Assembly: GCA_028532855.1 (NCBI GenBank)
Contig: JAQQAL010000002.1
Location: 5,901-69,900, forward strand
DNA from: Candidatus Thalassospirochaeta sargassi
GTDB taxonomy: Bacteria > Spirochaetota > Spirochaetia > UBA9216
DNA length: 64,000 bases
Reading direction: 5' to 3'
Shown one piece after another: positions 6,174 to 54,939 of the stretch. A program made the translations under genes and the position numbers. How positions within the stretch are numbered: the first letter of the stretch is position 1; every line of letters begins with the position of its first letter. The notes below the pieces were generated by a model. That model did not search any database, was not told where the DNA came from, and worked only from the letters and a program-made list of their open reading frames with translations.

Positions 6174-8258
6174 ATGAAAACATCAGATATGTTTCAAACA
6201 GACAGGAAGCTTTTAAAGAAGGGCATCTACAAATTATTAGAAATCAAAGATTCCGATATCAGACTTCTTACATTGATGCAGGGCGTAAAAGCTGTAGATC
6301 GAGGAATTCACAGCGGTGGCGCACTTTCTGCGATTCTCCCATTAACAGCTGTCTATTACGGTGGTTATATAGATTATGATTTAAAGGACCCTTCTCGTGT
6401 AGGGCAAGATATGTTTATTTTGAGTAAAGGTCATGCTGTTGCCGCAATGGCTTCAGTATATACAGATCTTGGGTTTTTCAAGTCTGAACTGCTTGAAAAC
6501 TCGAGATCAGTTGAGAGTCTTTTGAATGGGCATCCAGGCCCCCTGCTTCCCGGGGTACATATAGCGACTGGTCCATTAGGACAGGGGATTGCCGCGGCAC
6601 AGGGCCTGGCTATGGCGGGAAAGTCTCAGTCAAACTTTAATGTATTTGCTATTACTGGAGATGGAGAATTACAGGAAGGTGTTGTATGGGAAGCCATAAT
6701 GCATGCACCGCAGGCTAGACTTGATAACCTCTGTATGCTCGTAGATAAAAATGAAGGGCAGCTTGATAATCATACTAAACTTTTGTTTTCGATGGATAAT
6801 ATTCCCGGACAGATAGAGTCTTTTGGTTGGCGAACTTTTGAAGTAGATGGAACTAGCTATTCTTCAGTTTGTGCTGCACTGGACCAGTTTCAAAACGCTC
6901 CGAAGGATGGAAGACCTACTGCCATTATCTGTAATTCTACAAAGGGTTTCGGTTCATTTTCATCAGATTTAAATAGGCATAAAATTACTCTTGGTGAGGA
7001 TGAATACTTAAATGAGAAAACTTTACAGGAAAATCGTCGGGATGTCCGGATGAATAGTTTTCTCCAGTTTGCAGAGGAACTTAAACAAGCAGGTAAAGAC
7101 GACGTTTTAAACGAATTGAAAAATCGTGCTCGATATATGAACCTTGAGATTAAAAAAGATTTTGTCTCGGGAATAACTGCTGTGCCTTTTGCCGGGAAGG
7201 TCCCTGCCCGAAATAAGAAAATTAATTATAATCCAGCTGATATTCCTGCATACACTGCAGATGAAAAAGTTGCGGCTAGTGATGTTATTAAATCTTGTAT
7301 GAAAGTGTTTGCAAAGGATAACAGAGTCGTATCTGTTGATTCAGATTTAGGCTCAACTAGTGGACTTGAAGCTGGTATAAGTTCGATCGACGAAAGCAGA
7401 GCTATTAATATTGGTATTGCCGAATCAAATATGATGTGTGTGGGTGAGTCCTATGCAGCATTAGGATATAACGCTTGGGTAAGTACTTTTTGTCCCTTTT
7501 TCGATTGGAAAGTTCTTCGTAGAATAGCTATAAGTCAACAGGAACGAGTTGAGGCTATTGCTTCTCCGGATGGGTGGCTTTCCAAAGGACACGGTTTAGA
7601 TCTTACATTTCTTGCAACAGCGCCTAATTTTGAAACGAAAACTAATGGTGCTACGCATATGGGTAATGATGATACCATCGTTTATGGTGGTATTGGCGGC
7701 CTGAACATCATTGATGTTTCCTGTCCGAACCAGCAGGTTGCAATTATGAAGTGGATAATGGAAGGTAATAAGGGGCTAAATTATGTCAGAATCATGCGTG
7801 CAGCCTCTGGTGTGCTTTACCCTGCAGGAATAGATTTCGAATACGGTAAAGCTTATCAGCCATACGGTAATGGAGCCAGTGATGTAAACTTTGTTTCAAG
7901 CGGACGAGGTGTTCATGAAGCAATCGCCGCAGCTGAATTACTAAAAAAGAAAGATATTGAAGTTTCGGTGTATGATATGCCTTCTTTTGATGAGAAAACA
8001 ATTACAGAACTATTATCTTCGAAGGGATTAACTGTGATAGCCGAACAGAACAACGGTTTTATCTATGAACAACTGGGTAGATTGATATTAAAGACCGGTG
8101 ATACGGGCCTCTTAAAAAACTGTGTAGCTGTAAATGCAAATGATAAAGAAGGTAATTTTCATTATATACATTCTGCAACATATGACCAGTTATTAGATAA
8201 ATATCAGCTGACTCCGAAAGATCTAGCCACAACAGCTGAAAATAATTTAAAAGGATAA
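6174..8258 (+). CDS. tkt: Transketolase, single chain, 694 aa.
   Basis: TPP-binding motif 'GHPGPLLPGVHIATGPLGQGIAAAQGLAMAG' followed by 'GDGELQEG'. Pyrimidine-binding and C-terminal domains are present. Confidence 0.8.
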   Translation: MKTSDMFQTDRKLLKKGIYKLLEIKDSDIRLLTLMQGVKAVDRGIHSGGALSAILPLTAVYYGGYIDYDLKDPSRVGQDMFILSKGHAVAAMASVYTDLGFFKSELLENSRSVESLLNGHPGPLLPGVHIATGPLGQGIAAAQGLAMAGKSQSNFNVFAITGDGELQEGVVWEAIMHAPQARLDNLCMLVDKNEGQLDNHTKLLFSMDNIPGQIESFGWRTFEVDGTSYSSVCAALDQFQNAPKDGRPTAIICNSTKGFGSFSSDLNRHKITLGEDEYLNEKTLQENRRDVRMNSFLQFAEELKQAGKDDVLNELKNRARYMNLEIKKDFVSGITAVPFAGKVPARNKKINYNPADIPAYTADEKVAASDVIKSCMKVFAKDNRVVSVDSDLGSTSGLEAGISSIDESRAINIGIAESNMMCVGESYAALGYNAWVSTFCPFFDWKVLRRIAISQQERVEAIASPDGWLSKGHGLDLTFLATAPNFETKTNGATHMGNDDTIVYGGIGGLNIIDVSCPNQQVAIMKWIMEGNKGLNYVRIMRAASGVLYPAGIDFEYGKAYQPYGNGASDVNFVSSGRGVHEAIAAAELLKKKDIEVSVYDMPSFDEKTITELLSSKGLTVIAEQNNGFIYEQLGRLILKTGDTGLLKNCVAVNANDKEGNFHYIHSATYDQLLDKYQLTPKDLATTAENNLKG

Positions 8259-12031: not shown

Positions 12032-14236
<2,205 letters not shown>

Positions 14237-23217: not shown

Positions 23218-23790
23218 AATTTCACGAATTATCGCAGATATATACCCTTTTCGAACGCATGCTTGAGTTTTTTATCAACTCGAGATTTCATGTACTGCTT
23301 TCATATTTTTTCAGGTAACTGAAACCATTTTCCCATCCGGAGTTTTATTAGCTCCTTGATGTGGTCGTAATGGCCTTACGAAACTGTTTTCAAAAAAAAA
23401 TCAAAAACTGCTCCATTGCTTCCCTTTAAAGTATTTAAAGTGCGAGCGTGAGAGCAGTTGTTTAACAAACTCTCGGGAAGGGCTTACTGTAAGATTATGC
23501 CGGTTTGTTTTCTTCGACTTGAGCAGAATTACAATAAAGAAATATTTCGTCATCAATGAAGCCGACGGAACTGAAATACACCATGTCATAGTTGAGCCTG
23601 TCCTTTTTATATCACGAGTATTTTGGGACTATTGGATATTTTTTTATTGACAATACTTTATCGAATGACTTATAATTATCCCGATAAAGCTTGGTGGAAG
23701 CTAAAAAAATATAATAACAAAACATCTCATGCAGGAGTAGACTATTACTATTTTCTATTCAGGGTGAGGTGCGAGCAAAGGGAAGGACAA

Positions 23791-24453
23791 GTGGCTGAAA
23801 AAAAAGAAACGATCCTCGATCAGAAAGTAACCCGCCGCGATTTTCTCAAGATATCCGGAATGACGGTATTGGGAACCTCTGCAGTAACCTGGTTATTTCC
23901 CGGCTGCAGCAATGCAACCAACGACGATGTAATGATGTTTGAATCAGCATCAGGAGTAATTATTCACATACCGAACAGATGTACAGGCTGTCTGCTTTGT
24001 GAAGCAACCTGTTCAGTTGTAAACGATGGTAAGGCAAGTCAGACAACCGCAAGGTTAAAGGTAAGCAGAAACCTTGCTTACGGTCCCGAAGGAGTAACCG
24101 GACCCTGGTGGAACAACGATGGAGATATGGGAAACCATAGAATCATAGCTGAGACCTGCCGCCAGTGCGAAACACCGGCATGCGCTCTTGCCTGTCCCGA
24201 GCAGGCGATCTACCAGGATGAGAAGACTGGAGCAAAGGTTGTAGATACCGAAAAATGTATCGGCTGCGGTACCTGTACGGATGCCTGCCCCTGGCATATT
24301 CCGACGGTAGATCCTGACCTCAAGGTTTCTACTAAATGCGTTCTTTGTCACGGATACCCCGGCTGTGTTTCAGTATGTCCAACCGGTGCACTGAATTTTG
24401 TAACCTGGGCAGAAGCAATTCAAAGATACAAAGAGCACTTTAAGGTAAGCTAA
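23791..24453 (+). CDS. Twin-arginine (Tat) signal 4Fe-4S ferredoxin-like subunit, YdhX-like.
   Basis: GTG start at 23791 after RBS 'aagggaagga'. Tat motif 'TRRDFLKISGMTVLGTSAV'. Four Cys clusters of CxxCxxCxxxCP type. Confidence 0.75.
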   Translation: MAEKKETILDQKVTRRDFLKISGMTVLGTSAVTWLFPGCSNATNDDVMMFESASGVIIHIPNRCTGCLLCEATCSVVNDGKASQTTARLKVSRNLAYGPEGVTGPWWNNDGDMGNHRIIAETCRQCETPACALACPEQAIYQDEKTGAKVVDTEKCIGCGTCTDACPWHIPTVDPDLKVSTKCVLCHGYPGCVSVCPTGALNFVTWAEAIQRYKEHFKVS

Positions 24454-24463
24454 GGAGAATAAT

Positions 24464-26581
24464 ATGGCAGTAAAAGGCGGATGGGCAGGAAAGATCCTCA
24501 GGGTTAATTTGTCCACAGGAAATATAGAACGAATCAATACGGAAAATTTTATCAGATATATCGGCGGAATGGGAATTGGCTACAAGGTAATGTGGGATGA
24601 GGTTCCAGCCGGAACAAAGGCATTTGACAAAGATAATAAAATCATCTTTGGTGTAGGCCCGTTGACAGGTACTGGTGCAATGTGTTCGGGAAGAACAAAC
24701 ATTACATCCCTTCTCCCATCAAACCCCTACAATGCTGTGAGCGACAGCCACATGGGCGGGCACTTCGGTGTCGAACTTAAGTACGCCGGATGGGATGCAA
24801 TCATCATTGAAGGCAAATCATCACGGCCGGTATGGCTGAAGATTGTCGACGACAAGGTGACCCTTGAGGACGCCGGCATTTACTGGGGCGAGGGGACCTT
24901 CGCAACTATAGCCGGCATCACCGCAATGATGGGAAAACAGAGCCAGGTTGCGGCTATCGGCCAGGCCGGTGAAAACCAGGTTAACCTAAGCGTAATCCGT
25001 ACAGGTCCGAGCCACTCAGCCGGCGGACATGGTGGCGTACTCGGTTCAAAGATGCTGAAAGCTATCGGTGTCATGGGAACCGGTGCAGTCAATATTGCCG
25101 GAGACAAGATGAAATGGCACGAGCTTAACAAATACGCGCTCAGCCTGGTTGGTGCGAACAACCAGCATGTTGTTCCCCGCACACCACAGCCCTGGGCTGA
25201 ATACAGCCATCCGGGCAGCCGCTGGACTGCAAAAGACGGACTCTACTGGGAAAAGGCTGATCCCCCTATTGAAACGGGCACAATTCGGCCTGAAGAAACA
25301 AACCGGATAGGTTACCGCACAATGAAGGCAATGCTCGATCTGGGCAAGAATGGTCCGAAGTATACAGTCAGAATGGGCGGATGCGCGGCATGCCCCGTCC
25401 GCTGTAAAACCCATCTTGAGGTTCCGCAGCTTGAGCAGTATGGAGTCGATCCGCATGTTGCAAATACCTGTATGGGATTCTACAGTCCCTGGGGGGTTCT
25501 GGCCGGTATATCAGGAGGCAAAGCAAGTGTTCCCGGAGAGTCAAAAGATGATGCTTCCGTTATCGCAAAGGCTCTCGGCGCACATTATGCCGACGATTAC
25601 GGTGTCTGGTGTAACTACGGTCAGATTGGGCGCGACTTTGCCTGGACCTATAAGCATGGCGTTTTAAAGCGAGTTCTTCCGACTGCAGAATACAACAGCA
25701 TCGACTGGGAGTCGATTGAAGCCGGGGATCCTGCAATCTTTGCCGATTTTTACCGCAGAATTGCCTTCAAGGAAGGTGAACTCAGTCACTTGGGAGATGG
25801 AGCACACTATATTTCAGAGAGATGGAACCTCGGTGAAGATTACTGGACATACAAGGGCAACAAGCTCTGGACGAAGATCGGCTACCCGGTTCATCACAGT
25901 AATGAATCAGACGCACAGGTTGGTTCTCTCATAAGTTCAATGTTCAACCGCGATGCACAGAGCCATACTCATCAGAATTTTATCGGCAGTGGCCTTCCCA
26001 CCGAGGTACAGAAGGACATTGCTGCAGAACTCTGGGGCAGTGCAGATGCGATAGATGAACCTGCAAACTATAAACCTGTAACAAAAGCAAAGATGAAATT
26101 CGCCAAGTGGAGTATTGTAAGAAACCTGCTTCACGACAGTCTGACAGTATGCAACTGGATGTGGCCGATGACTACCTCACCTCTGAAAGAGCGTAACTAT
26201 CGGGGTAACACTGCACTTGAAGCTTTATACTACACAGAAGCTACGGGAGAAGAAATTTCGGAAGAAGAACTTGATCTGCAGGCGGAAAAGCTTTTCCACC
26301 TTCATAGAGCACTGACTATCAGACAGATGGGGACTGTGGATATGAGAAACACACACGACCAGCTTACAGGATGGCAGTTCGATATGGATCCTGATAAAAA
26401 AGCTTTCGAACCGGGAACAATCAAACTCGATCGTGAAGATTATGAAAACACCCTGACTATGTTCTATGAAGAGATGGGCTGGGATCCTAAAACCGGTGCT
26501 CCCACAAGGGCTACACTGGAAAAACACGATCTTAAGTTTGTTGCTGATGATCTTGATGTTAAGAATCTTCTTCCGGCTTAG
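24464..26581 (+). CDS. Aldehyde:ferredoxin oxidoreductase-family tungsto/molybdo-pterin enzyme, long (705 aa) YdhV-like type.
   Basis: AOR N-domain 'ILRVNLSTG...GGMGIGYKVMW...GPLTGTG...GVELKYAGWDAIIIEGKS...AAIGQAGEN...GSKMLKAIG'. No signal peptide of its own. Confidence 0.85.
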   Translation: MAVKGGWAGKILRVNLSTGNIERINTENFIRYIGGMGIGYKVMWDEVPAGTKAFDKDNKIIFGVGPLTGTGAMCSGRTNITSLLPSNPYNAVSDSHMGGHFGVELKYAGWDAIIIEGKSSRPVWLKIVDDKVTLEDAGIYWGEGTFATIAGITAMMGKQSQVAAIGQAGENQVNLSVIRTGPSHSAGGHGGVLGSKMLKAIGVMGTGAVNIAGDKMKWHELNKYALSLVGANNQHVVPRTPQPWAEYSHPGSRWTAKDGLYWEKADPPIETGTIRPEETNRIGYRTMKAMLDLGKNGPKYTVRMGGCAACPVRCKTHLEVPQLEQYGVDPHVANTCMGFYSPWGVLAGISGGKASVPGESKDDASVIAKALGAHYADDYGVWCNYGQIGRDFAWTYKHGVLKRVLPTAEYNSIDWESIEAGDPAIFADFYRRIAFKEGELSHLGDGAHYISERWNLGEDYWTYKGNKLWTKIGYPVHHSNESDAQVGSLISSMFNRDAQSHTHQNFIGSGLPTEVQKDIAAELWGSADAIDEPANYKPVTKAKMKFAKWSIVRNLLHDSLTVCNWMWPMTTSPLKERNYRGNTALEALYYTEATGEEISEEELDLQAEKLFHLHRALTIRQMGTVDMRNTHDQLTGWQFDMDPDKKAFEPGTIKLDREDYENTLTMFYEEMGWDPKTGAPTRATLEKHDLKFVADDLDVKNLLPA

Positions 26582-26586
26582 GGAAA

Positions 26587-27129
26587 TTGACTGATATGTC
26601 TGATAATATACCGGCGCTCGCCGCCGGTTTCATAAGAGAGCAGTCCCGAAAAGGACTGCTCTCAACTGAAAATAATGTTATTAATAGATTTGAGCAGGAT
26701 GCAGGGAATGGCCTTTCTCTCTCTGAACTCAGTGAGAATAAGGAATATGGCGATCTTCAGAGAATCAGCGGGGAAAAGGCTGATTACTGGTACTCAACAT
26801 CCTGCATGACCAGCAGCTATGCTGAAATTGCAGTGCTGCTTGAAGAAAAAGATCTGCTAAGCCTGATTGTTAACACCGTAAGAAGGGAAAGCAGCCTGTA
26901 CCCAAGGCCGACGGCTATAGAGATTTTTGAATATTCTCCATATTTCATGAAGAAAGAAGAGATTGAGACTATGATGTCAATAATTGAAAATGATACCAGA
27001 TACTCAGATATTGAGAAATGTGCAACATCGATCGATAAGTTTTATCTTTTTTCTACAAAGTTTCTTCCGAAAGCACAGGCAGAATACCTCAGTGAATGGG
27101 ATGCAGTGGGACAGTATGAAAATCAGTAA
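26587..27129 (+). CDS. Hypothetical protein inside the AOR operon.
   Basis: 180-aa ORF. Translationally coupled to the AOR (5 nt after its stop) and overlaps fdhD. No motif recognised. Confidence 0.4.
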   Translation: MTDMSDNIPALAAGFIREQSRKGLLSTENNVINRFEQDAGNGLSLSELSENKEYGDLQRISGEKADYWYSTSCMTSSYAEIAVLLEEKDLLSLIVNTVRRESSLYPRPTAIEIFEYSPYFMKKEEIETMMSIIENDTRYSDIEKCATSIDKFYLFSTKFLPKAQAEYLSEWDAVGQYENQ

Positions 27130-27787
27130 TCATAAACCAAATCCGGTAGAACTTCCAATTGTAGATGAAGTAAAGTTCAAACTTTTTATTAATGGTGTTT
27201 ACTATAGTGATTTCCTGTGTACACCAGAGAGTATTGAAGAACTAGTACTTGGATATCTTTACACAAATTGTCATATATCAACAGTACATGAGCTTGAAAA
27301 GATTATAATAAAGGAATATAAAATAAATGCAGAATTAAGGCGTTCCACACCGCAGGAAGCTTTAACACCATTAAAAAAAAGCATTAAGCTGCCGGACAAA
27401 CAGAAATTAAGGAGAATGGCCCTCAAAATGTTCAGTACTGCTTCTATCTATAAAAAACACGGTGGAATACATTGCAGTGCATTTACTGATGGAGAGACTC
27501 TGCTTGCGTTTAAAGAAGATATAGGCCGGCATAATGCGTATGACAAAGTAGTAGGCGAACTTCTGATGAAAGAGCTCGATCCCTCGGAGCTGATTTATAT
27601 TACTTCCGGCAGAGTCAATCATGAAGTGATGCAGAAAACCCTCGCGGGGAGAATCCCGGCGATAGTATCAAGAAGCATATGCTCAAGTGCGGCCTATAAT
27701 GCGGCGCTTGAAAACGGGGTTGTGGTTATAGGACGAATTCTCGAAGATTCGCCAATTGTATACGGAAAGGAAATCATGAATGTCTGA
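27116..27787 (+). CDS. fdhD: FdhD-family sulfurtransferase (cofactor sulfuration accessory protein).
   Basis: 'GGIHCSAF' active-cysteine region and FdhD-like length. ATG at 27116; an alternative ATG is at 27101. Confidence 0.65.
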   Translation: MKISNHKPNPVELPIVDEVKFKLFINGVYYSDFLCTPESIEELVLGYLYTNCHISTVHELEKIIIKEYKINAELRRSTPQEALTPLKKSIKLPDKQKLRRMALKMFSTASIYKKHGGIHCSAFTDGETLLAFKEDIGRHNAYDKVVGELLMKELDPSELIYITSGRVNHEVMQKTLAGRIPAIVSRSICSSAAYNAALENGVVVIGRILEDSPIVYGKEIMNV

Positions 27788-28553
27788 AGTGATGACTGAT
27801 CAAGAAACAACAATGGCATTCCGCGCCCATCTTAAGGCGTTGAAACGCACGCTTATTGTATGTCTGATAAGCTTTATATGCGCTAGTGTAATATGTTTCC
27901 TGTTTTTTGACCCTATTGTCGAATTTCTTTATGCTCCTTTTCTTTCAATCGAAAACGCTGGAACTGAGGATACGCTCTTTATTAATAATATTTTTGAAGG
28001 ATTTCTTGCCAAATTAAAGATATCATTACTTTCAGGTCTGACGCTGAGTTTTCCGATTATTCTTTTCAGTGTTCTTAGATTTGTATTTCCTGCTCTCTCA
28101 AAGAAAGAGCGCAGGGTTATTCTTTATACGCTTATAATCAGTGCAGTACTTGTACTTGTCGGTTTCTATTACAGCTATTATTTGATACTGCCCATAACGA
28201 TAGACTTTTTCACAAGCGTAGGCTTTCTTCCGGATAATGTCGGAATTCTACTGAATTATCAGAATAATATAATCTACATCTTCAAATTCATTTTTATGAT
28301 AATGATAACATTTCAGTTTCCGGTACTGATGGAGATGCTGATGATAACAAATATAGTCGAAAGAAAAACGCTTTTAGGTTTTAGCAGATACATTATAGTA
28401 GGCGTTTTTTTACTTGCCGCAATCATTACCCCGCCGGATTTTGTCTCGCAATGCATGATTGCATTTCCCATGATATTTCTTTATTTTCTAGCTATTCTCA
28501 TAGCGAAAATATTTGGATTTGGAAAATCGATAGAGGGTAAAAATGGCAAATAA
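27780..28553 (+). CDS. tatC: Sec-independent translocase TatC.
   Basis: 257 aa with six TM helices. N-terminal 'AHLKALKRTLIVCLISF' is typical of TatC. Overlaps fdhD by 8 nt. Confidence 0.85.
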   Translation: MSEVMTDQETTMAFRAHLKALKRTLIVCLISFICASVICFLFFDPIVEFLYAPFLSIENAGTEDTLFINNIFEGFLAKLKISLLSGLTLSFPIILFSVLRFVFPALSKKERRVILYTLIISAVLVLVGFYYSYYLILPITIDFFTSVGFLPDNVGILLNYQNNIIYIFKFIFMIMITFQFPVLMEMLMITNIVERKTLLGFSRYIIVGVFLLAAIITPPDFVSQCMIAFPMIFLYFLAILIAKIFGFGKSIEGKNGK

Positions 28554-28866
28554 TGGAATAGGTTTCAGTGAGATACTCATTATACTTGTTATCTTCCTTA
28601 TTTTTGTACGCCCCTCAGATATGCCCAAAGTTGTCAGAACAATTGGTAAAATCTGGGCCAAATTCTATCTGTATTTTTCGATGTTCAAGCGTGAGATGAG
28701 AAATATGGAAAAAGAGATTGGTATTGAAGATGAGATGAAGGAGATACGGGCAATCAATGCTCAGCTCAACAGCGAGGTAATATCACTGAGAAACAGTGTT
28801 AACAATATTGTAGATAAAAACGAGTTGGCAGATCTCAAGAAAACTGAAATCAGTAAGGAGAATTAA
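28543..28866 (+). CDS. tatB: TatA/TatB-family protein, long TatB-like form.
   Basis: 'GIGFSEILIILVIFLIFVRPSDMPKVVRTIGK' is a TM helix plus hinge with an amphipathic extension. 107 aa. Confidence 0.6.
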   Translation: MANNGIGFSEILIILVIFLIFVRPSDMPKVVRTIGKIWAKFYLYFSMFKREMRNMEKEIGIEDEMKEIRAINAQLNSEVISLRNSVNNIVDKNELADLKKTEISKEN

Positions 28867-28867
28867 G

Positions 28868-29029
28868 ATGTTAGGAACAACAGAAATTATCGTAATCGGC
28901 GGCGTTGTCGTTCTACTATTCGGAGCCAGCGCTATTCCCAAATTTGCCCGCTCTTTGGGCAAGGCTAAAAAAGAATTCAAGGAAGGCGTAAACGAGGGAC
29001 TTGAAGAGCAGAAGGAAGGAGATAAATAA
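28868..29029 (+). CDS. tatA: TatA. This 54-aa ORF is absent from the supplied ORF track.
   Basis: ATG at 28868 lies 1 nt after the tatB stop. Translation is 'MLGTTEIIVIGGVVVLLFGASAIPKFARSLGKAKKEFKEGVNEGLEEQKEGDK', a canonical TatA/E. Confidence 0.75.
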   Translation: MLGTTEIIVIGGVVVLLFGASAIPKFARSLGKAKKEFKEGVNEGLEEQKEGDK

Positions 29030-29080: not shown

Positions 29081-31315
29081 TTGATGGATACGAAACGCTT
29101 AGTAATCCTCGGCGGAGGATATGCCGGCATAGAAGCCGCAAAAACACTGTATAAAAAATACAAAAAAAATGATAAAGTAGAGATAACTCTTATCGATAAA
29201 AACACTTACCACACCCTTATGACCGAGCTTCATGAGGTTGCAGGTTCAAGGGTCGAACCTGATTCAGTCATGGTAAGCTATCAGAGAATTTTCTCGGGAA
29301 CCAATATCAACCTTGTTACCGATGTTATCACCGGAATTGATTTTGAAACCAGAAAACTTAAATCAGATAAAGCTGAATATGATTATGATTACCTTGTTCT
29401 GGGAACCGGGGGAGCCCCCGAGTTTTTCGATATTGAAGGTGTTCAGGAAAATTCATTCTCACTCTGGTCGCTTGAGGATGCTATGCGTATCCGTGAGCAT
29501 TTTGAAGAACGCTTCAGGCTTGCCGCAAATGAACCGGATGAGTCTCTAAAAGCACAGATGCTTACTTTTGTTGTGGCAGGAGCAGGTTTCACCGGGATCG
29601 AGCTTATTGGTGAGTTTATCGAGCGCCGCGATGTGCTCTGTGCAAAATACCATATACCCGTCAAAGATGTCAGAATGGTTGTTGTAGAGGCGCTTGATTC
29701 AGTTCTCCCTATCATTGAAGAACCGCTTAGAAAAAAAGCGGTTAAATATCTGAAAAAGAAGGGTGCCGAGATAATCCTGAATGCACGAATTACCGGTGCC
29801 GCGGAAGGAAAAATCCTGCTTGCCGATGGAAGTGAAATAAAAACCGATACATTCATCTGGACCTGTGGAATTCATGGCTCCGAGTTTACCTCAAAGATTA
29901 ATCTCACTAAAGGACATACTGCCCGCGGCGAATGCAGCATTGCGTCAGCGGAGGGAATACACGGTATGTGCGGCTGCCGCTTTGATGAAGACGAGCGCTA
30001 TGTTGTTGGGAAACGCGGACGTATTCTCGTAAATGAATATATGCAGACGGACGATTATGAGAATGTATATGCAGTTGGAGACAACCTCTGGTTTGTTGAA
30101 AAAGAGAAGGTCCTCCCTCAGATAGTAGAGACCGCTCTTCAGACGGGGGAAACTGCTGCTGAAAATATTATTGCAGAAATTGAGGGTAACGATAAAAAAG
30201 CCTTCGAATCCAACTACCATGGTTTCATGGTATCAATTGGCGGTAAATACGCTGTTTCAAACGCCGGCGGAATGAAAACCTCGGGCTTTATGGCCATGGC
30301 GATGAAACACCTTGTAAACCTTCACTATCTCTTCGGAGTTGCCGGTATAAACGCGATATGGGGTTACCTTAAACACGAGTTCTTTGACATGAAAGATCGC
30401 AGAACCTTCATTGGCGGTCACCTGTCCTGGAAGATTCAGGGCTGGTGGGCTGTACCTCTGAGAGTATGGCTGGGTCTGATGTGGGTTTTTGAAGGTATCA
30501 ATAAGATAGGCGAAGGATGGTTTAACTTCTCCGCCGGCTCAAAATCCGGATGGATGTTCAGTTCCGGGGTGCTTCAGAAGGGCGTAAAACCCGCGGCAGA
30601 CGCATACAGCGCAGCCAGCGGTGCCGGTGAAACGGCTGTAGAGGCAGCAGGTCACGCAGATATGACTGCTGTATTCGACTCTGCAATGCCTAATCCGCAA
30701 CACGGTTCCGACGCTGTAAGTGCAGCTTCCGATTATGCAGCCGGTGCTGCCGAAGCGGTAGTTGAAGCAGCAGCCGATACTGTCAGCGCAGCTTCCGATT
30801 CTGCAGCCGTTGCAGTTGAGGCTGCTGCCGACGCTGTAAGTGCAGCATCCGATTATGCAGCCGATGCAGCTGGCGCTGCCGCCGACACCGCCGGACAGGT
30901 CTTCGGTAAGATATGGGATCTCGGTAATAATATAATTCCCTACGAATCAGGGTTTGTAACCTGGTTCAGAGAAACCTTTATGGATGGAATTGCGGCCTAC
31001 ATTCATTACCCTGTTTTTCAGGTGATGATAGTACTGGTTGAAATAGGGATAGGGCTTGCGCTGATGGGTGGATGTTTCACATTCATAGCAGCCGGTGTTT
31101 CAATAATTATGTGCCTTGTATTTACATTCTCGGGTATGTTTGCCTGGGATCAGGCTTGGTTTGTTTTTGCAGCTTTTCTGCTTCTAGGCGGAGCCGGACG
31201 TTCGCTGGGCCTTGATCACTGGATTATGCCGGCGATCAAACGATGGTGGAATGGAACAAAGCTTGCACGCAGAACACACTGGTTCGTTGGAGAACCTAAA
31301 ACAAGAAATAAATAA
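29081..31315 (+). CDS. Fusion protein: type-II NADH dehydrogenase-like FAD/NAD(P) oxidoreductase N-domain, an Ala/Ser/Asp-rich repeat linker, and a DoxX-family membrane domain.
   Basis: N-terminal 'LVILGGGYAGIEAAK' and a second 'VVAGAGFTGIEL' Rossmann motif. C-terminal 'LRVWLGLMWVFEGINKI' is a DoxX motif with four TM helices. Total 744 aa. Confidence 0.7.
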   Translation: MMDTKRLVILGGGYAGIEAAKTLYKKYKKNDKVEITLIDKNTYHTLMTELHEVAGSRVEPDSVMVSYQRIFSGTNINLVTDVITGIDFETRKLKSDKAEYDYDYLVLGTGGAPEFFDIEGVQENSFSLWSLEDAMRIREHFEERFRLAANEPDESLKAQMLTFVVAGAGFTGIELIGEFIERRDVLCAKYHIPVKDVRMVVVEALDSVLPIIEEPLRKKAVKYLKKKGAEIILNARITGAAEGKILLADGSEIKTDTFIWTCGIHGSEFTSKINLTKGHTARGECSIASAEGIHGMCGCRFDEDERYVVGKRGRILVNEYMQTDDYENVYAVGDNLWFVEKEKVLPQIVETALQTGETAAENIIAEIEGNDKKAFESNYHGFMVSIGGKYAVSNAGGMKTSGFMAMAMKHLVNLHYLFGVAGINAIWGYLKHEFFDMKDRRTFIGGHLSWKIQGWWAVPLRVWLGLMWVFEGINKIGEGWFNFSAGSKSGWMFSSGVLQKGVKPAADAYSAASGAGETAVEAAGHADMTAVFDSAMPNPQHGSDAVSAASDYAAGAAEAVVEAAADTVSAASDSAAVAVEAAADAVSAASDYAADAAGAAADTAGQVFGKIWDLGNNIIPYESGFVTWFRETFMDGIAAYIHYPVFQVMIVLVEIGIGLALMGGCFTFIAAGVSIIMCLVFTFSGMFAWDQAWFVFAAFLLLGGAGRSLGLDHWIMPAIKRWWNGTKLARRTHWFVGEPKTRNK
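30700..30880 (+). repeat. In-frame ~60-bp tandem repeat (3 copies) encoding 'DAVSAASDYAA...'.
   Basis: Near-identical 34-mers 'gacgctgtaagtgcagc(t/a)tccgattatgcagccg' at about 30708 and 30828, with a diverged copy at about 30775. Confidence 0.6.
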
Positions 31316-31327
31316 CAGGATAGAAAA

Positions 31328-32308
31328 TTGCCGGTAGTGAAGGAAATTGTTACTTCTACACATGATAAACAACTCAAAGAAGATCTAGCTGAAGTAAAGG
31401 ATATTCTTGGTGAAATCGCTGATACCGCCCCGGGCATAGTCAGAGAGGACATAAGGAAGCTTGTTTCCGGAAACGGTAAAATGCTTCGACCCTCGTTTAC
31501 TACCATAGCAGGACGCTACGGTAATTTTGAGGGCGAACGCATTTATAATATGGCTGCCGCAGTAGAGCTTCTTCATAATGCAACACTGATTCATGATGAT
31601 ATAATTGATGATGCTTCTATAAGACGCGGCAAGCCTGCAATCCATATGCTGCATGGTAATAAACTCGCGATACTTGCGGGCGATTATCTTTTTTCGAGGA
31701 GTATTGTAGTTGCTTCTGAAAAATCCCGAACAGCACAATACGGGCGGCTCGCAGGAGCCGTCGCTAAAATCTGTGAAGGTGAGATAATTCAGGATTCCGA
31801 AAAATATGTTCTTAATCCAAGTATACGCAGCTATAAAAGAAGAATAGCCGGAAAAACCGCAGTTCTTTTCGCTATAAGTCTATATATCGGAGCCAATGAA
31901 GCAGGCTGCTCCAGCGACGACTGCTCCACCTTCTCCCGGATTGGTTACAACGTCGGCATGGCATTTCAGATTATTGATGATTTACTCGATATTACCGGGA
32001 CTCCAGCGGTAACAGGCAAGCCCACCGGCCGTGATATTACAGAAGGGATCTACACCCTCCCCGTGCTGTATGCACTTGAAAATGATGACGGCAGACTTGG
32101 ACGACTGCTTTCTAAATACCCCTACCGCAGACATACTGTAAAAAAGATAACGAAGCTTGTCTGTGAATCTTCCGGTCCTGAAAAAGCTGCAGCTCAGGCG
32201 GAATTATACTCTGATCGTGCCATGAGAGAGATCAGTAAACTTGATGAAGGCTACACAAAATACCAGCTTTCTGTCTTGGTGAAAAATCTTCTGAAACGTA
32301 ATTATTAA
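31328..32308 (+). CDS. Trans-polyprenyl diphosphate synthase (hepta/octaprenyl; menaquinone side chain).
   Basis: 'LIHDDIIDDASIRRGKP' first DDxxD motif and 'FQIIDDLLD' second motif. TTG start at 31328, which is uncertain. Confidence 0.8.
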   Translation: MPVVKEIVTSTHDKQLKEDLAEVKDILGEIADTAPGIVREDIRKLVSGNGKMLRPSFTTIAGRYGNFEGERIYNMAAAVELLHNATLIHDDIIDDASIRRGKPAIHMLHGNKLAILAGDYLFSRSIVVASEKSRTAQYGRLAGAVAKICEGEIIQDSEKYVLNPSIRSYKRRIAGKTAVLFAISLYIGANEAGCSSDDCSTFSRIGYNVGMAFQIIDDLLDITGTPAVTGKPTGRDITEGIYTLPVLYALENDDGRLGRLLSKYPYRRHTVKKITKLVCESSGPEKAAAQAELYSDRAMREISKLDEGYTKYQLSVLVKNLLKRNY

Positions 32309-35870: not shown

Positions 35871-36563
35871 ATGAAGATTCAAATGAGAAGATTTCTGATC
35901 CTGACGGTTGTTGTATCCGTTTCTATAGGATTTGCAGGATGCGCGCCCCGTACAGCAGATAAGGTCTCCGAGGCTGCCGGAAGCGATACCACCAGTGCTG
36001 CTTCAGCGAAAAATGACTACTCAGCCTATGAGGGAGTGTCCGAATTTGCAGAGATGAACGGCATTTTCGGAAGATTGACAGCCCGACAGTTTTCTAATGA
36101 ATCGGTATCCGAAGAGCAGATCGATATGCTGCTGAATGCCGCCTTTGCTTCCCCCACGGGTGGAAACCAGAGATCCTGCGAGCTCATGGTAGTTACTGAC
36201 AGAAGTATGATGAAGAAGATGCAGGAGGGGCATCCTTATTCCCAGCCGCTGGACACGGCTCCGCTGGTTATTGTGATTGGAGTAAATGAAGAGACTGCGA
36301 AGTATCCTGAAATCCTGACTCTGGATGCAGGTATTGCCGCCATGGCCATTATGGTTCAGGCCGCTGAAATGGGTCTGGTTTCGGTTCCAATGAGCATCAT
36401 GCCCCAGGCTGAGCGTATCCAGGGAATCGCAAATGCGATCGGTCATCCTGGAAATGTAGCCGGCCAGATAATGGTTGCCGTAGGGCACAGCGCCGTGGAC
36501 GGTGATACCCATGCAAGCACCGATTACTTTAATGAGGAACAGGTGCATGTAAACGGCTGGTGA
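35871..36563 (+). CDS. Nitroreductase-family flavoprotein with an N-terminal lipoprotein signal.
   Basis: 'ILTVVVSVSIGFAGCAP' lipobox, then a nitroreductase core 'AAFASPTGGNQRSCELMVV'. Confidence 0.7.
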   Translation: MKIQMRRFLILTVVVSVSIGFAGCAPRTADKVSEAAGSDTTSAASAKNDYSAYEGVSEFAEMNGIFGRLTARQFSNESVSEEQIDMLLNAAFASPTGGNQRSCELMVVTDRSMMKKMQEGHPYSQPLDTAPLVIVIGVNEETAKYPEILTLDAGIAAMAIMVQAAEMGLVSVPMSIMPQAERIQGIANAIGHPGNVAGQIMVAVGHSAVDGDTHASTDYFNEEQVHVNGW

Positions 36564-36853
36564 GAACTCTTAAAAAGCAGATCTCAGCTTCAGTTTCCTT
36601 CGGGAGACTGAAGCTGTGGGATAGACAAATACACAGGAGTGAGATTCCGGATATCATCAATAATAGAAGAAGCATTAGAAAATATTCGGAGAAGCCCCTC
36701 TGTAATGATCTTATTCTGAAGCTGACAAAAGCAGCAATGCAGGCCCCTTCAGCCGGCAACCAGCAGCAGGATATGTCTGCAGCAGCAGCGAAATTTCTTC
36801 TGGAAGCAGTTCGGTTGAGTGTTTCTCCAGTGAAAGAGCTGAAAGTTTTATGA
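36560..36853 (+). CDS. Nitroreductase-like N-terminal fragment, possibly truncated.
   Basis: 'NNRRSIRKYSEKPL...AAMQAPSAGNQQQ' matches the nitroreductase N-terminus, but the ORF ends after 97 aa without the rest of the fold. Confidence 0.35.
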   Translation: MRTLKKQISASVSFGRLKLWDRQIHRSEIPDIINNRRSIRKYSEKPLCNDLILKLTKAAMQAPSAGNQQQDMSAAAAKFLLEAVRLSVSPVKELKVL

Positions 36854-53139: not shown

Positions 53140-54939
53140 TTATAAAACTGTTTTGTAGGCTTCGATAAATTTCGGCTCTATGCCGAGTTCCTCAAGTTTT
53201 TCTACCGTCGGGCGGCCGCGCTCGTCCCAACCTCGGTAGGCATAGTATTCGTCCATAGCTTTGTCGAAAGCCTCTTTGGTGTAGGCAATATCTTTGGGCG
53301 GTCCGGCTTTAAGCAGTTCCTTATGGAACCTGCCGGGCAGTTTGTCTTCTGTACGATCAAAGCCGGCCATGATGTTGAACATTCTTTGGAGGTTGAACAC
53401 GCGCTCGCCGGTTTTATATACTCTGTCTGCCGGCCATTCTCCGCCGTAGGTCAGTTCAAACAGTCGGCCCAGTGTTTCGTCATCTATCGGCCAGAAGTCG
53501 CAGACGCCCATCGAGAACTTGCAGAACTGTGAGTTCTGCATGTCGGCTACAAGCTTACCCTTGCCTTCAAAGGTGAACGGATCAAGCTCACCCCATGCTT
53601 CTTCGGCAATGGGGTAGGCGGACATATGGCAGCCTCCGCGGGGGGCGCTTACATAGGCAATTCCCATAGACCATGAACCTCGCGGATCATAGCCCGGCAG
53701 CTCAAGCCCCTTAACCTGGATTGCAAACTCTTCCCCGCCGTATTTTTCAGACAGGGCTTTTGAACCCATTGCAGCCTCTGCACCGATGCCGTCTTTATAA
53801 GCTATTTTCGTAAGCATTTCTATTGCTGCCTCCGCATCACCGAATCTAATGCCGAAGTCATGAATGCCCTTCTGTGTTGCTTCCATCATATAGGCGATTG
53901 TTCCGCCTGCTGATATTGTATCAAGACCCAGATCGTCACAGACTGAGTTGAACTCAATTACCTTTTCACGGTTGCCGACGCCGAGTGATGAACCTCCAAG
54001 CACGATGCTTTCGTATTCAGGGCCTTCAACTGATGCGGCTCCGTCTACTACGTAGTTTCCGCAGGCGATGCCGCAGGAAAAGCAGCCTTTTTTGTTCTTT
54101 CTGACGTCTTTAAAAGACTGCCCGTTTATCTTTTCCGCCTCTTCGAATGTACCTTCCTGGAAGTTGTTTGTCGGAAGGAGCCCCGACTCCTGGCTGTAAT
54201 CAACAAGGCATGAGGTGCCAAGGTCGTAGATTTCATTATCGGTCGCAATTACTTCATCCCGAACCGTTACCTCTTTGGAATATTTCAGCAGACCCTGGAG
54301 ATCATTAACGCTTACGTCAAGCTTTCCCCTGATTGCAATTGCTTTCAGGTTTTTGCTGCCCATAACCGCCGCTATTCCGCCTCTTCCAAGCTGTCTGTAT
54401 TTCTCCGAAGAAATACAGGAGTACGGAACGAGGTTCTCGCCTGCTGGGCCGATGGCCAGAACCTTAAGCTCTTCATCACCGACTTCTTCCTTGAGTCTCG
54501 CGTCTACATCAAAGGTTCCAAGACCCTTGAGAAACGCGGCATCTCTTATTTCAACTTTTTCATCAGTGATGTAAAGGTATGAAAGCCCGCCGGCTCTGCC
54601 GGTGATGTCAACAGCATCATATCCGGTGTATTTCAGCTCGGCCCCGGTATGTCCTCCGACAGAACCGTCGGTGATGGTTCCTGATAGTGGAGATTTTGTC
54701 GTAATAGCTAATTTTGATGAACATGAGACGATAGTTCCACCCATAACAGAGGTTGTAAGAACAACCTTGTTCTCGGGAGAGAACGGATCAGTTTTAGGAT
54801 TAACATCTTCCATCAGTATTCTGGAGCCAAGACCCTTCTGCCCGGTATAAAGCTCCACCCATTCCGTCGGGGTATCATTCCTGCTTATTGAACCGTTGCT
54901 GAGGTTTACCTTCAGTATTTTGCCCATTAAACTGTTCAT
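53140..54939 (-). CDS. Aldehyde:ferredoxin oxidoreductase (classical ~600-aa tungsten AOR type).
   Basis: 'ILKVNLSNG...LGSRIL...LSPENKVV...GPAGENLV...GGIAAVMGSKNLKAIAIRG', collinear with archaeal AOR. Confidence 0.9.
   Translation of the reverse strand: MNSLMGKILKVNLSNGSISRNDTPTEWVELYTGQKGLGSRILMEDVNPKTDPFSPENKVVLTTSVMGGTIVSCSSKLAITTKSPLSGTITDGSVGGHTGAELKYTGYDAVDITGRAGGLSYLYITDEKVEIRDAAFLKGLGTFDVDARLKEEVGDEELKVLAIGPAGENLVPYSCISSEKYRQLGRGGIAAVMGSKNLKAIAIRGKLDVSVNDLQGLLKYSKEVTVRDEVIATDNEIYDLGTSCLVDYSQESGLLPTNNFQEGTFEEAEKINGQSFKDVRKNKKGCFSCGIACGNYVVDGAASVEGPEYESIVLGGSSLGVGNREKVIEFNSVCDDLGLDTISAGGTIAYMMEATQKGIHDFGIRFGDAEAAIEMLTKIAYKDGIGAEAAMGSKALSEKYGGEEFAIQVKGLELPGYDPRGSWSMGIAYVSAPRGGCHMSAYPIAEEAWGELDPFTFEGKGKLVADMQNSQFCKFSMGVCDFWPIDDETLGRLFELTYGGEWPADRVYKTGERVFNLQRMFNIMAGFDRTEDKLPGRFHKELLKAGPPKDIAYTKEAFDKAMDEYYAYRGWDERGRPTVEKLEELGIEPKFIEAYKTVL

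Follow-up and report, generated by a model that had tools for sequence, protein, structure and literature searches.

A spirochaete homologue of Listeria Ndh2 with candidate flavinylation sites repeated in tandem in a predicted periplasmic loop

Flavin-based extracellular electron transfer (EET) has been studied in Listeria, Enterococcus and lactobacilli. The Listeria ndh2 gene sits between pplA and eetA/eetB/polyprenyl synthetase in what is annotated as a FLEET locus; RefSeq annotates EetB as a subunit of an FAD exporter, not as an electron carrier. A transmembrane-anchored NDH-2 serves as a marker of EET systems (PMC8238504, methods), and "clade D" NDH-2 is the transmembrane type (PMC13524794). 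The flavinylation motif of ApbE is D-x-x-[S/T]-G-A-[S/T], of which the seven residues suffice; exchange of Gly for Ala keeps about 50% of flavinylation and Ser is accepted as acceptor, and either of these features is reported to lower the efficiency of a substrate (PMC12052999). Periplasmic flavinylation by ApbE/Ftp is experimentally established in the spirochaete T. pallidum (PMC4436053). Multi-flavinylated proteins, which by definition contain two or more FMN-binding domains ("beads on a string"), have been proposed to relay electrons over distance (PMC8238504; PMC10339131).

The DNA considered here, called the window, is a stretch of 64,000 nucleotides from Candidatus Thalassospirochaeta sargassi. 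It contains an ndh2-type gene (29084..31315, + strand; 743 aa plus stop), the product of which combines NDH-2 with a DoxX-like four-helix membrane domain. The reading frame 29081..31315 (+) has 744 aa when counted from a TTG; ATG 29084, which is preceded by GAGAGG, is most likely the start, giving a product of 743 aa. This product is 100% identical over 743 aa to the database protein P0001 ("Spirochaetales bacterium" MAG), and the single 744-aa ORF joining NDH-2-like and membrane modules, which an earlier note had described, is real.

BLASTP against L. monocytogenes Ndh2 showed 43% identity for aa 1-475 (E 8e-122) and 31% for aa 612-740 (E 2e-18), and a profile of the C-terminal domain matched Ndh2 of Listeria and E. 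gilvus with E ~1e-42 (9e-43). In common with L. monocytogenes Ndh2 ("clade D"; Ndh3 in E. faecalis), NDH-2 is followed by a C-terminal four-helix membrane domain, a polyprenyl synthase is encoded downstream at the position of DmkB, and an [S/T]-x-A-[S/T] site is present in the same loop between TM1 and TM2. Judged by sequence, the protein is a whole-length homologue of Listeria Ndh2, the EET-specific NADH dehydrogenase. There are also differences: the loop has about 165 aa and four tandem sites, compared with one site in Listeria; position 5 of the motif is Ala instead of Gly; the NDH-2 module is enlarged by a Cys-containing insertion of about 38 aa; and pplA, an FMN transferase gene, eetA, eetB, fmnA and dmkA are lacking at the locus. 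Since the spirochaete host is diderm, the loop would face the periplasm and not, as in Listeria, the cell wall.

The NDH-2 module and the membrane domain

The cytoplasmic NDH-2 flavoprotein module (aa 1-434; 29084..30385, + strand) was recognized by Pfam, PDB and Foldseek comparisons and by GxGxxG motifs; it ends in amphipathic helices (aa 402-434). Pfam Pyr_redox_2 matched aa 6-268 with E 2e-36, and Pyr_redox was matched too. The two GxGxxG motifs, GGGYAG (aa 10-15) and GAGFTG (aa 166-171), belong to a two-Rossmann flavoprotein fold. The NDH-2 of C. thermarum (4NWZ) was matched with E 6e-69, that of S. aureus with E 2e-56 and B. subtilis YjlD with E 1e-56; Foldseek gave a target-normalised TM-score of 0.94 and an rmsd of 1.7 A against C. 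thermarum NDH-2. The earlier assignment to NDH-2 with two Rossmann motifs is borne out by these values, and by the same comparisons a bona fide NDH-2, with predicted NADH:quinone activity, makes up the N-terminal ~430 aa.

In C. thermarum the quinone-site motif is AQxAxQ. The segment aligned to it reads V-E-T-A-L-Q, with the second Gln kept; Glu349 is invariant in the family at a position where C. thermarum has Gln. The Cys-containing insertion (~38 aa, residues 272-309; ~33 alignment columns; 29897..30010, + strand), visible as a gap against 4NWZ, carries the conserved residues Cys284 and Cys298. Of 57 spirochaete-group rows of the alignment, 51 had Cys284, and the insertion was missing from all 26 Firmicutes-type rows.

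Hydropathy and AlphaFold agreed on four transmembrane helices (aa 453-476, 642-662, 666-682 and 688-700). TM1 (aa 453-476; 30440..30511, +) is a helix of pLDDT 84-95, with W455, P458, R460, G464 and W467 as invariant columns. It is followed by a conserved periplasmic segment, GEGWFNFSAGSKSGWMFSSGVLQKGV (30512..30592, +), seen in the spirochaete alignment. A second conserved segment, periplasmic or interfacial, precedes TM2 in the alignments (FGKIWD...IIPYESGFVTWFRETFMD; 30905..30988, +); its aligned counterpart in Clostridia is "HTPGWYAW", and the Listeria loop has a similar "HMPGWFQW" at this place, the latter compared by eye. TM2-TM4 (aa 642-712; 31007..31219, +) were delimited by sub-threshold DoxX, DoxD and MauE matches and by the three AlphaFold helices (pLDDT 82-95), and a Lys/Arg-rich cytoplasmic tail with 8 K+R in 32 aa by charge counts (31220..31312, +) completes the protein. 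The loop itself has 5 K+R versus 21 D+E. From a cytoplasmic NDH-2 followed by one helix, an acidic loop and a K/R-rich tail, the TM1-TM2 loop is predicted to be extracytosolic, that is, periplasmic. On the side of the membrane taken by the repeat, for which the earlier note had proposed a topology check, the outcome is accordingly a prediction.

The DoxX assignment made previously could be kept in part. This copy reached 16.2 bits with DoxX (PF07681; curated cutoff 23.6; E 0.017) and 11 bits with DoxD (PF04173; cutoff 22.7), both below threshold; at the Pfam cutoff it thus has no DoxX match, an outcome which the earlier note had itself named as a refutation of its proposal. Among relatives, 14 of 23 matched PF07681 at E<=0.01, the best with 7e-07, and precomputed matches to PF07681 or PF04173 exist for many homologs. 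The four helices stand, and the DoxX likeness survives on this family-level evidence, so that the domain is best called "DoxX-like", of divergent DoxX/DoxD type. It shares with DoxX and DoxD the four-helix membrane architecture, HMM similarity at the level of the family and a plausible quinone-facing role; it differs in the score of the window copy and in the long TM1-TM2 loop which splits the domain. A solved structure of a DoxX-like domain for comparison was not found.

Weak Pfam similarities to DoxX, DoxD and MauE, low-scoring NCBIfam matches to SQR and CoA-disulfide reductase (all far under cutoffs) and the conserved Cys pair in the spirochaete-specific insertion might suggest a sulfur- or thiol-linked quinone reductase working through the DoxX/DoxD-like domain, modelled on thiosulfate:quinone oxidoreductase-type or thiol-stress complexes, instead of a component of EET. 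However, true NDH-2 enzymes match far better than anything else, the gene has no linked DoxA, rhodanese or other sulfur gene, and the DoxX-like domain is almost confined to fusions with NDH-2 and to FLEET-type loci; such a function appears very improbable.

The repeated loop and its flavinylation-like motif

Repeat search, TRF and mapping of units showed three in-frame tandem units of 66, 54 and 54 bp (30710..30883, + strand), each of which opens with a candidate flavinylation site: DAVSAAS (site 2, 30710-30730), DTVSAAS (site 3, 30776-30796) and again DAVSAAS (site 4, 30830-30850), all on the + strand. TRF reported a period of 54 with 2.4 copies and 80% matches (30760-30888); copies 1 and 3 share 93% identity over 43 nt, with copy 2 at 81%. 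A fourth, diverged unit at ~30599 contains site 1, DAYSAAS (aa 506-512, acceptor Ser512; 30599..30619, +), which was located by motif mapping and motif statistics. The in-frame DNA repeat of the earlier note was therefore found again, and its copy number does vary among close relatives, as had been supposed: four motif units are present in the window protein, six near-perfect units of 22 aa in P0002 (85% identical), and six strict-motif units of 18 aa, or seven by a looser count, in P0010. Two other statements about the segment need correction. It had been regarded as a linker between the two halves of the protein; since one helix (TM1, 453-476) lies before the repeat and three (642-700) after it, the repeat is an insertion inside the membrane domain. 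Nor is it merely of low complexity: a motif similar to ApbE flavinylation sites occurs in it in a position-specific way.

In the D-x-x-S-A-A-S sites of the window protein, the one departure from the motif is Ala instead of Gly5, with Asp, Ser4, Ala6 and the Ser acceptor unchanged. The pattern D..[ST][GAS]A[ST] was scanned in 130 family loops and compared with shuffles; 190 occurrences were observed versus 1.8 expected, an approximately 100-fold excess that is uncorrected for phylogeny, and at least one motif was present in 105 of the 130 loops. Asp stood exactly at -3 in 190 of 232 [ST][GAS]A[ST] cores, versus a background of 5.7% Asp (likewise uncorrected). Shuffle and Fisher statistics of this kind ignore phylogeny, and tandem duplication multiplies any motif within a repeat unit. 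The motif rate was 1.23 per 1000 aa in the family versus 0.046 elsewhere, and, outside the family, two or more motifs per ORF were seen in bona fide FMN_bind proteins only. In Clostridia the motif was found at the same loop position in 28 of 30 sequences (for example DAASGAS, DGGTGAS, DAGTSAS); the same loop contains SGAS (TSGAS) in Listeria, TGAS in Enterococcus and a perfect DATSGAT in P0110. Spirochaete relatives have one to seven copies of the site, relatives in Bacilli and Clostridia usually one.

Extracytosolic location, here predicted, of a seven-residue D-x-x-[S/T]-x-A-[S/T] motif and genetic linkage of relatives to apbE are features which the ndh2-type family shares with ApbE/Ftp substrates (NqrC, RnfG, PplA, T. 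pallidum TP0171). In the natural substrates, by contrast, the motif is part of an FMN_bind (or DUF2271/DUF3570) domain and has Gly as its fifth residue; Gly is also used by the bona fide FMN_bind proteins encoded in the family loci (DAISGAT, DTVTGAT). Here an FMN-binding domain is lacking, the place of Gly is taken by Ala or Ser, and modification is predicted only. Pfam FMN_bind, DUF2271 and DUF3570 had no match in the window protein, and its candidate sites lie where pLDDT is below 50 and no FMN-binding fold is seen; no pocket for a tethered flavin is evident there. In this respect the sites resemble the engineered seven-residue "Flavin-tag", which is likewise placed in a flexible segment and not in a folded pocket. 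With the multi-flavinylated proteins of Meheust et al. (2021) the protein has in common several predicted sites on one extracytosolic polypeptide, the difference being that here they are bare repeats of 18-22 aa in a membrane-protein loop fused to an NADH dehydrogenase. A report on flavinylation of any Ndh2 was not found in the literature searched.

The linkage to apbE was derived from 88 loci (7 of the spirochaete family, 81 of Clostridia/Atribacteria) with neighbours within 10 kb of the domain. Genes for ApbE were present at 56 of them, for polyprenyl_synt at 65, for Hpre_diP_synt_I (EetB-type) at 54 and for NusG_II (EetA-type) at 51. ApbE is a divergent neighbour in the spirochaete loci L003, L089 and L090, and other FLEET genes were seen in relatives, namely NusG_II in L003, UbiA in L004 and L006, and FMN_bind in L006. 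At 20 loci an adjacent ApbE and a loop motif coincided and yet no FMN_bind gene was detected within 10 kb. G. ferrireducens and Anaerosolibacter have two paralogs each; the motif-less copies (L007/L037, L039, L041) are without any FLEET context, whereas the copies adjoining ApbE (L068, L029) possess motif-like sites.

An EET-type or respiratory Ndh2 could also contain the repeat as an unmodified, acidic and disordered periplasmic spacer, which changes by replication slippage and in which D-x-x-S-A-A-S is inherited low-complexity sequence without a cofactor. This would agree with pLDDT below 50 across aa 505-597 (AlphaFold), with loop lengths of about 3 to 208 aa among homologs, with Ala at position 5 where Gly is canonical, and with the absence of apbE from the window. 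None of ApbE/FmnB, PplA (FMN_bind), EetA (NusG_II), EetB or UbiA/DmkA was found encoded in its whole 64 kb. The spacer would agree, too, with the existence of a loop-less subgroup of ~580 aa (P0030, P0035) without a motif site, from which it follows that the site is not essential to the fold. On the other hand, the loop is otherwise unalignable between Bacilli, Clostridia and Spirochaetota, yet its Asp (-3), Ala (+2) and Ser/Thr (+3) stay the same, and short loops hold a single, non-repetitive motif, which slippage cannot explain. The excess of motifs over the shuffled expectation, the tight linkage of the family to apbE even at loci without another detectable substrate, and the fact that the paralogs without a motif coincide exactly with those lying outside FLEET loci also speak against a mere spacer, which we hold to be rather unlikely.

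Neighbouring genes

The gene which starts 12 bp downstream of the ndh2-type gene (31328..32308, + strand) encodes a long-chain polyprenyl diphosphate synthase (Pfam E 1.5e-60), HepT-like, with 237 bits for TIGR02748, below the cutoff of that model; by position it is the counterpart of DmkB. A polyprenyl synthase, as the next gene had been named previously, is kept downstream in 11 of 11 spirochaete-family loci, directly in 10 and with one gene between in the loop-less L004.

Upstream lies a Tat-exported AOR cluster (23665..29029, + strand; Pfam, NCBIfam) consisting of genes for an Fe-S protein, a YdhV-like AOR, YdhW_C, FdhD, TatC and two TatA. No terminator-like site was seen in the 54-bp gap between tatA and the ndh2-type gene, and the two may be co-transcribed. 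The ndh2-type protein could then be a dedicated membrane partner of the exported YdhV-like AOR/Fe-S module, replacing a YdhU-type membrane subunit and tying periplasmic redox reactions of an aldehyde (or another substrate) to the quinone pool; this would be compatible with flavinylation, the loop being a docking and electron-transfer element. Such a partnership is suggested by the common strand and the short gap, by the block from the Fe-S gene to the polyprenyl synthase, which is kept in L091 (78% identity) between different flanking genes, and by the AOR cluster encoding no other membrane redox subunit. However, the cluster does not adjoin the family gene in eight other spirochaete-family loci examined, among them L092 (71% identity), L002, L003, L005, L006, L089 and L090, and the loci of Clostridia and Listeria lack it as well. 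The association, being restricted to the window and L091, appears recent and clade-specific; the adjacency could be simple juxtaposition, any physical or electron-transfer link is hypothetical, and a dedicated partnership seems improbable. Of the membrane partner proposed in the earlier note the adjacency remains, in these two loci. Should coupling exist, the known role of the family (Listeria Ndh2 passes electrons from NADH via quinone to extracytosolic acceptors) suggests that the protein would be an electron donor to the AOR module, rather than the "electron acceptor" assumed before.

About 4.5 kb downstream, a nitroreductase-family lipoprotein is encoded (35871..36563, + strand; ORF translation, Pfam Nitroreductase, motif scan), which has DTTSAAS (nt 35985-36005) just after the lipobox and is a possible second substrate of ApbE.

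A possible path of electrons and its meaning

The explanation which we favour, and which on balance appears somewhat probable, is a spirochaete Ndh2 of the FLEET/EET type with a dedicated polyprenyl synthase, whose tandem loop sites are flavinylated by ApbE and form a chain of flavins. NADH would reduce the FAD of the NDH-2 module, which would in turn reduce membrane quinone; on the outward side of the membrane, the DoxX-like domain would re-oxidise the quinol and pass electrons to FMN, covalently attached by an ApbE-type flavin transferase to the terminal Ser of the D-x-x-S-A-A-S units. The polyprenyl synthase would supply the side chain of demethylmenaquinone for the Ndh2-type enzyme. Tandem duplication has raised the number of sites to four in this spirochaete lineage, and the flexible, acidic multi-flavin tether would hand electrons to periplasmic partners, candidates for which in this clade are the upstream Tat-exported AOR/Fe-S complex and the motif-bearing nitroreductase lipoprotein. 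A more far-reaching proposal, that the DoxX-like domain of Ndh2 is in general an ApbE substrate and the missing step from quinol to flavin, with FMN on a bare seven-residue site and a spirochaete array of four to seven FMNs relaying electrons from the inner membrane to periplasmic enzymes, is put forward tentatively, as a possibility.

A flavinylation-type site in the outward loop of Ndh2, from Listeria to spirochaetes, is a candidate for the step from the quinone pool to extracytosolic flavin. If modified, the spirochaete variant would represent a new class of ApbE substrates, with tandem sites and without an FMN-binding domain, and the engineered Flavin-tag would have a natural parallel in its array. 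FLEET-type machinery would thereby extend to the Spirochaetota, which are diderm and for which periplasmic acceptors would be expected.

Architecture of the fused protein

The open reading frame that the earlier note had placed at 29081–31315 (+) was recovered by the ORF call, with ATG 29084 as the probable start of the ndh2-type gene (GAGAGG lies 5' of it); the product of 743 amino acids is identical to the database homologue P0001 from a "Spirochaetales bacterium" MAG. The first ~430 aa make up a genuine NDH-2 (type II NADH dehydrogenase), as had been proposed, with a Pfam match to Pyr_redox_2 (E 2e-36) and two GxGxxG sequences, i.e., the two Rossmann motifs noticed before. The NDH-2 of Caldalkalibacillus thermarum aligned with aa 4–271 and 310–425 (E 6e-69), and the AlphaFold model (mean pLDDT 82) could be superposed on NDH-2 structures with a target-normalised TM-score of 0.94. 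The module carries an insertion of ~38 aa (aa 272–309, 29897–30010; GHTARGECSxASAEGIHGMxGCRF...), in which Cys284 and Cys298 are near-invariant; proteins of the spirochaete group have this insertion, whereas it is lacking in all 26 Firmicutes-type proteins and in C. thermarum NDH-2. At aa 348–354 (~30125–30145), which align with the quinone-site motif of NDH-2 (AQxAxQ in C. thermarum), family members read V-E-[TSA]-A-x-Q, Glu349 being invariant; this may point to a specialised quinone.

The assignment of the C-terminal domain to DoxX held for the family only, through its relatives. The match of the window protein itself was below the Pfam threshold (16.2 versus 23.6 bits, E 0.017), also for the C-terminal half and a loop-deleted construct, whereas 14 of 23 aligned relatives matched at E<=0.01 (best 7e-07) and precomputed DoxX or DoxD matches exist for many homologues; the label "DoxX" thus rests on the relatives. 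A Foldseek search with the membrane domain alone gave no match in the PDB (best E 5.5).

The in-frame DNA repeat is real (TRF period 54, 2.4 copies, 80% matches, 30760–30888). In protein register the units measure 66, 54 and 54 bp (30710–30883), copies 1 and 3 being 93% identical over 43 nt, and a diverged fourth unit is located upstream at 30599. Each unit starts with a short site: DAYSAAS (aa 506–512), DAVSAAS (aa 543–549), DTVSAAS (aa 565–571) and DAVSAAS (aa 583–589). The suspected variability of copy number was borne out, since spirochaetes possess 0 to 7 copies and close relatives differ; P0002, a homologue 85% identical to the window protein, contains six near-perfect 22-aa units. The proposed position of the repeat, as a linker between the two modules, had to be abandoned: one hydrophobic helix (aa 453–476) precedes it and three (aa 642–700) follow, and the repeat is an insertion in the TM1–TM2 loop. 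A loop-less subgroup exists in the family. The loop is predicted to be periplasmic, because the NDH-2 module must be cytoplasmic and the loop is acidic (5 K+R versus 21 D+E), compared with a C-terminal tail rich in K+R (8 in 32 residues).

Relationship to Ndh2 of Listeria and gene neighbourhood

With a profile of the C-terminal domain, matches at E<=0.001 were limited to 471 of 1.84 billion cluster representatives; the domain begins at about residue 405–437 in full-length proteins and is therefore fused to NDH-2. Full-length homologues of 650–790 aa are common in Spirochaetota (Marispirochaeta, Salinispira, Sediminispirochaeta, Alkalispirochaeta, Treponema), and Clostridia widely carry a shorter form of ~580–650 aa, among them the metal reducers Thermotalea metallivorans and Geosporobacter ferrireducens. 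At least 398 family loci were counted when species-representative genomes were scanned.

PLSDB happens to include large replicons of Listeria and Enterococcus. The Clostridial member P0311 matched a gene of Listeria monocytogenes over 99% of its length, which is situated between pplA and eetA/eetB/polyprenyl synthetase and adjoins the FMN transferase gene and fmnA. By these neighbours it is Ndh2 of the experimentally defined flavin-based extracellular electron transfer (EET) locus, the composition of which has been described (PMC8906456, PMC7074142); our description of Listeria Ndh2 is drawn from secondary papers and the RefSeq-annotated locus. Two PLSDB "plasmid" records of L. monocytogenes, NZ_LR134400.1 (locus L093; 593 kb) and NZ_CP030101.1 (2.9 Mb), carry ribosomal protein operons together with the FLEET locus; evidently, chromosomal sequence has been entered there under the name of plasmid. 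The window protein showed 43% identity to Listeria Ndh2 over aa 1–475 (E 8e-122) and 31% over aa 612–740 (E 2e-18), and the C-terminal domain profile matched Listeria Ndh2 with E ~1e-42. The window protein is very probably an EET-type Ndh2. In published work, an NDH-2 with a transmembrane anchor serves as the marker of this system (PMC8238504; "clade D" NDH-2 in PMC13524794).

The downstream polyprenyl synthase pointed out in the earlier note corresponds to DmkB and is a conserved partner. In all 11 spirochaete-family loci it lies downstream of the family gene; 10 of them have it as the next gene, and in the loop-less L004 a single gene separates the two. Gene context was surveyed by local profile searches within 10 kb of the domain in 88 loci (7 spirochaete-family, 81 Clostridia or Atribacteria), with seeds from Pfam-annotated loci. 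Polyprenyl synthase occurred in 65/88, ApbE in 56/88, Hpre_diP_synt_I (the EetB slot) in 54/88, NusG_II (the EetA slot, as annotated in E. gilvus) in 51/88 and FMN_bind in 32/88; the family is thus linked with apbE. In Clostridia the genes typically run ndh2, FMN_bind (optional), apbE, NusG_II, HpreI, polyprenyl synthase. Spirochaete loci are reduced, with ApbE as a divergent neighbour in three of them (L003, L089, L090); in L003, from Salinispira pacifica, apbE occupies 6840–7928. Within the 64-kb window UbiA, ApbE, FMN_bind, NusG_II and Hpre_diP_synt_I were not found, and just the pair of ndh2 and polyprenyl synthase genes is kept. In the spirochaete locus L090 (2893–7856, 11798–13879) the apbE-ndh2-polyprenyl synthase module is flanked on one side by genes associated with CRISPR (Cas2 and an HNH protein) and on the other by an ECF-type transporter (CbiQ, ABC, BioY-like); the latter recalls the ECF transporter for flavin in the Listeria locus. 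A FLEET-type Ndh2 homologue with its DmkB partner is, in our judgement, very probably encoded here; if flavinylated sites are included in the statement, the balance tips only slightly in its favour.

The loop motif as a candidate flavinylation site

The sites in the loop resemble the motif for flavinylation by ApbE, D-x-x-[S/T]-G-A-[S/T], of which seven residues are enough (Flavin-tag); roughly 50% of the flavinylation remains when Gly is replaced by Ala, and Ser is a possible acceptor (PMC12052999). Position 5 of the window sites is Ala, not Gly, while FMN_bind proteins of family loci use Gly. In 130 family loops 190 occurrences of D..[ST][GAS]A[ST] were observed versus 1.8 expected from residue shuffles, with kinship ignored, and 105 of these loops contained at least one. 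Asp was exactly at -3 in 190/232 [ST][GAS]A[ST] cores, against a background of 5.7% Asp. The rate was 1.23 motifs per 1000 aa within the family and 0.046 outside, where the only ORFs with two or more motifs were bona fide FMN_bind proteins. Many variants (SGAT without Asp, DATASAS, DKLVAGAS) escaped the strict regular expression, and the broadened motif definition is post hoc.

The position is conserved as well. Short-looped Clostridial proteins have one non-repetitive motif at the aligned position in 28/30 cases (DAASGAS, DGGTGAS, DAGTSAS), TSGAS occupies the same place in Listeria Ndh2 (within ...TAATSGASQ... of the 628-aa protein in L093) and TTGAS in that of E. gilvus, and a perfect DATSGAT was found in an Alkalispirochaeta homologue. 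In two Firmicutes-type proteins, P0299 and P0297, the loop site was tandemly amplified independently, with another unit, e.g., ...DTVASASTAVADAVASAST....

Contingency of the motif with ApbE alone was not significant (p 0.12), and with any of ApbE, NusG_II or HpreI p was 0.003, kinship being ignored in both and L007 and L037 representing one locus. A natural control is provided by Geosporobacter ferrireducens (L007/L037, L068), Anaerosolibacter carboniphilus (L029, L039) and an Anaerosolibacter sp. MAG (L036, L041), which possess two paralogs each: the one adjoining apbE has motif-like loop sites, whereas the other has a Pro-rich loop without motif (PDAIANPSPPADT) and no FLEET/EET gene context. 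In 20 loci apbE is adjacent and the loop motif is present, while no FMN_bind gene could be detected within 10 kb; the Ndh2 loop is the sole visible candidate substrate there. In the AlphaFold model the site array has pLDDT <50 and no FMN-binding fold.

An O-glycosylation site, for which the motif in Bacteroidetes is D-[ST]-[AILVMT], or a phosphopantetheine site was also considered; neither pattern fits D-x-x-S-A-A-S. As a hypothesis, we prefer to interpret the "low-complexity linker" as candidate sites for flavin attachment arranged in tandem; we consider the chances that these sites are flavinylated to be about even. For the spirochaete T. pallidum, experiments have established flavinylation by ApbE/Ftp in the periplasm (PMC4436053). 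The literature searched contained no report that ApbE flavinylates Ndh2 or domains of the DoxX type, and nothing relevant on NDH-2 together with DoxX.

The AOR cluster and a possible electron route

Upstream, at 23665–29029 (+), lie genes for a Tat-signal Fe-S protein, a YdhV-like AOR (NCBIfam 1104 bits versus a cutoff of 868), YdhW_C, FdhD, TatC and two TatA; TatC and TatA are encoded within this Tat-exported, YdhV-type cluster itself, which has no YdhU-like membrane subunit. If TTG 26984 is taken as its start, the FdhD ORF overlaps the YdhW_C gene; gene calling places the start at 27092. The suggested link between this cluster and the ndh2-type gene stood in part: both are on the same strand, 54 bp apart, with no terminator-like site between them, but the synteny is limited to a clade. 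The whole block recurs with different flanks in L091 (78% identical) and was not present in L092 (71% identity) or any other spirochaete locus examined; any coupling to AOR is therefore clade-specific. Should such coupling exist, Ndh2 would, to judge from the direction in which electrons are known to flow in this family, supply the periplasmic enzyme rather than accept electrons from it. A second AOR of 599 aa without a Tat partner is encoded at 53140–54939 (-), and a catalase-peroxidase (KatG-type) gene at 12056–14236 (+).

A nitroreductase-family lipoprotein (35871–36563), whose signal peptide ends ...GFAGC, contains DTTSAAS (35985–36005), with the S-A-A-S variant of the loop sites, in an Ala/Ser-rich stretch just past the lipobox. 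The protein is a possible second substrate of ApbE and could act as an electron acceptor in the periplasm, although this is on its own only suggestive, ~0.8 chance motifs being expected per window. The gene may be split or frameshifted, as judged from a weak Nitroreductase match in the next ORF (~36560–36853).

The following route could perhaps operate. Electrons from NADH would pass through the NDH-2 module to a demethylmenaquinone-type quinone, the quinol would be oxidised by the DoxX-like bundle on the outward side of the membrane, and the electrons would be transferred to FMN esterified by ApbE on the terminal Ser of each motif. The amplified array would then be a periplasmic tether, flexible and acidic, that bears several flavins. 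The proposal of candidate flavin attachment reaches back to Ndh2 of Listeria and is directly testable.
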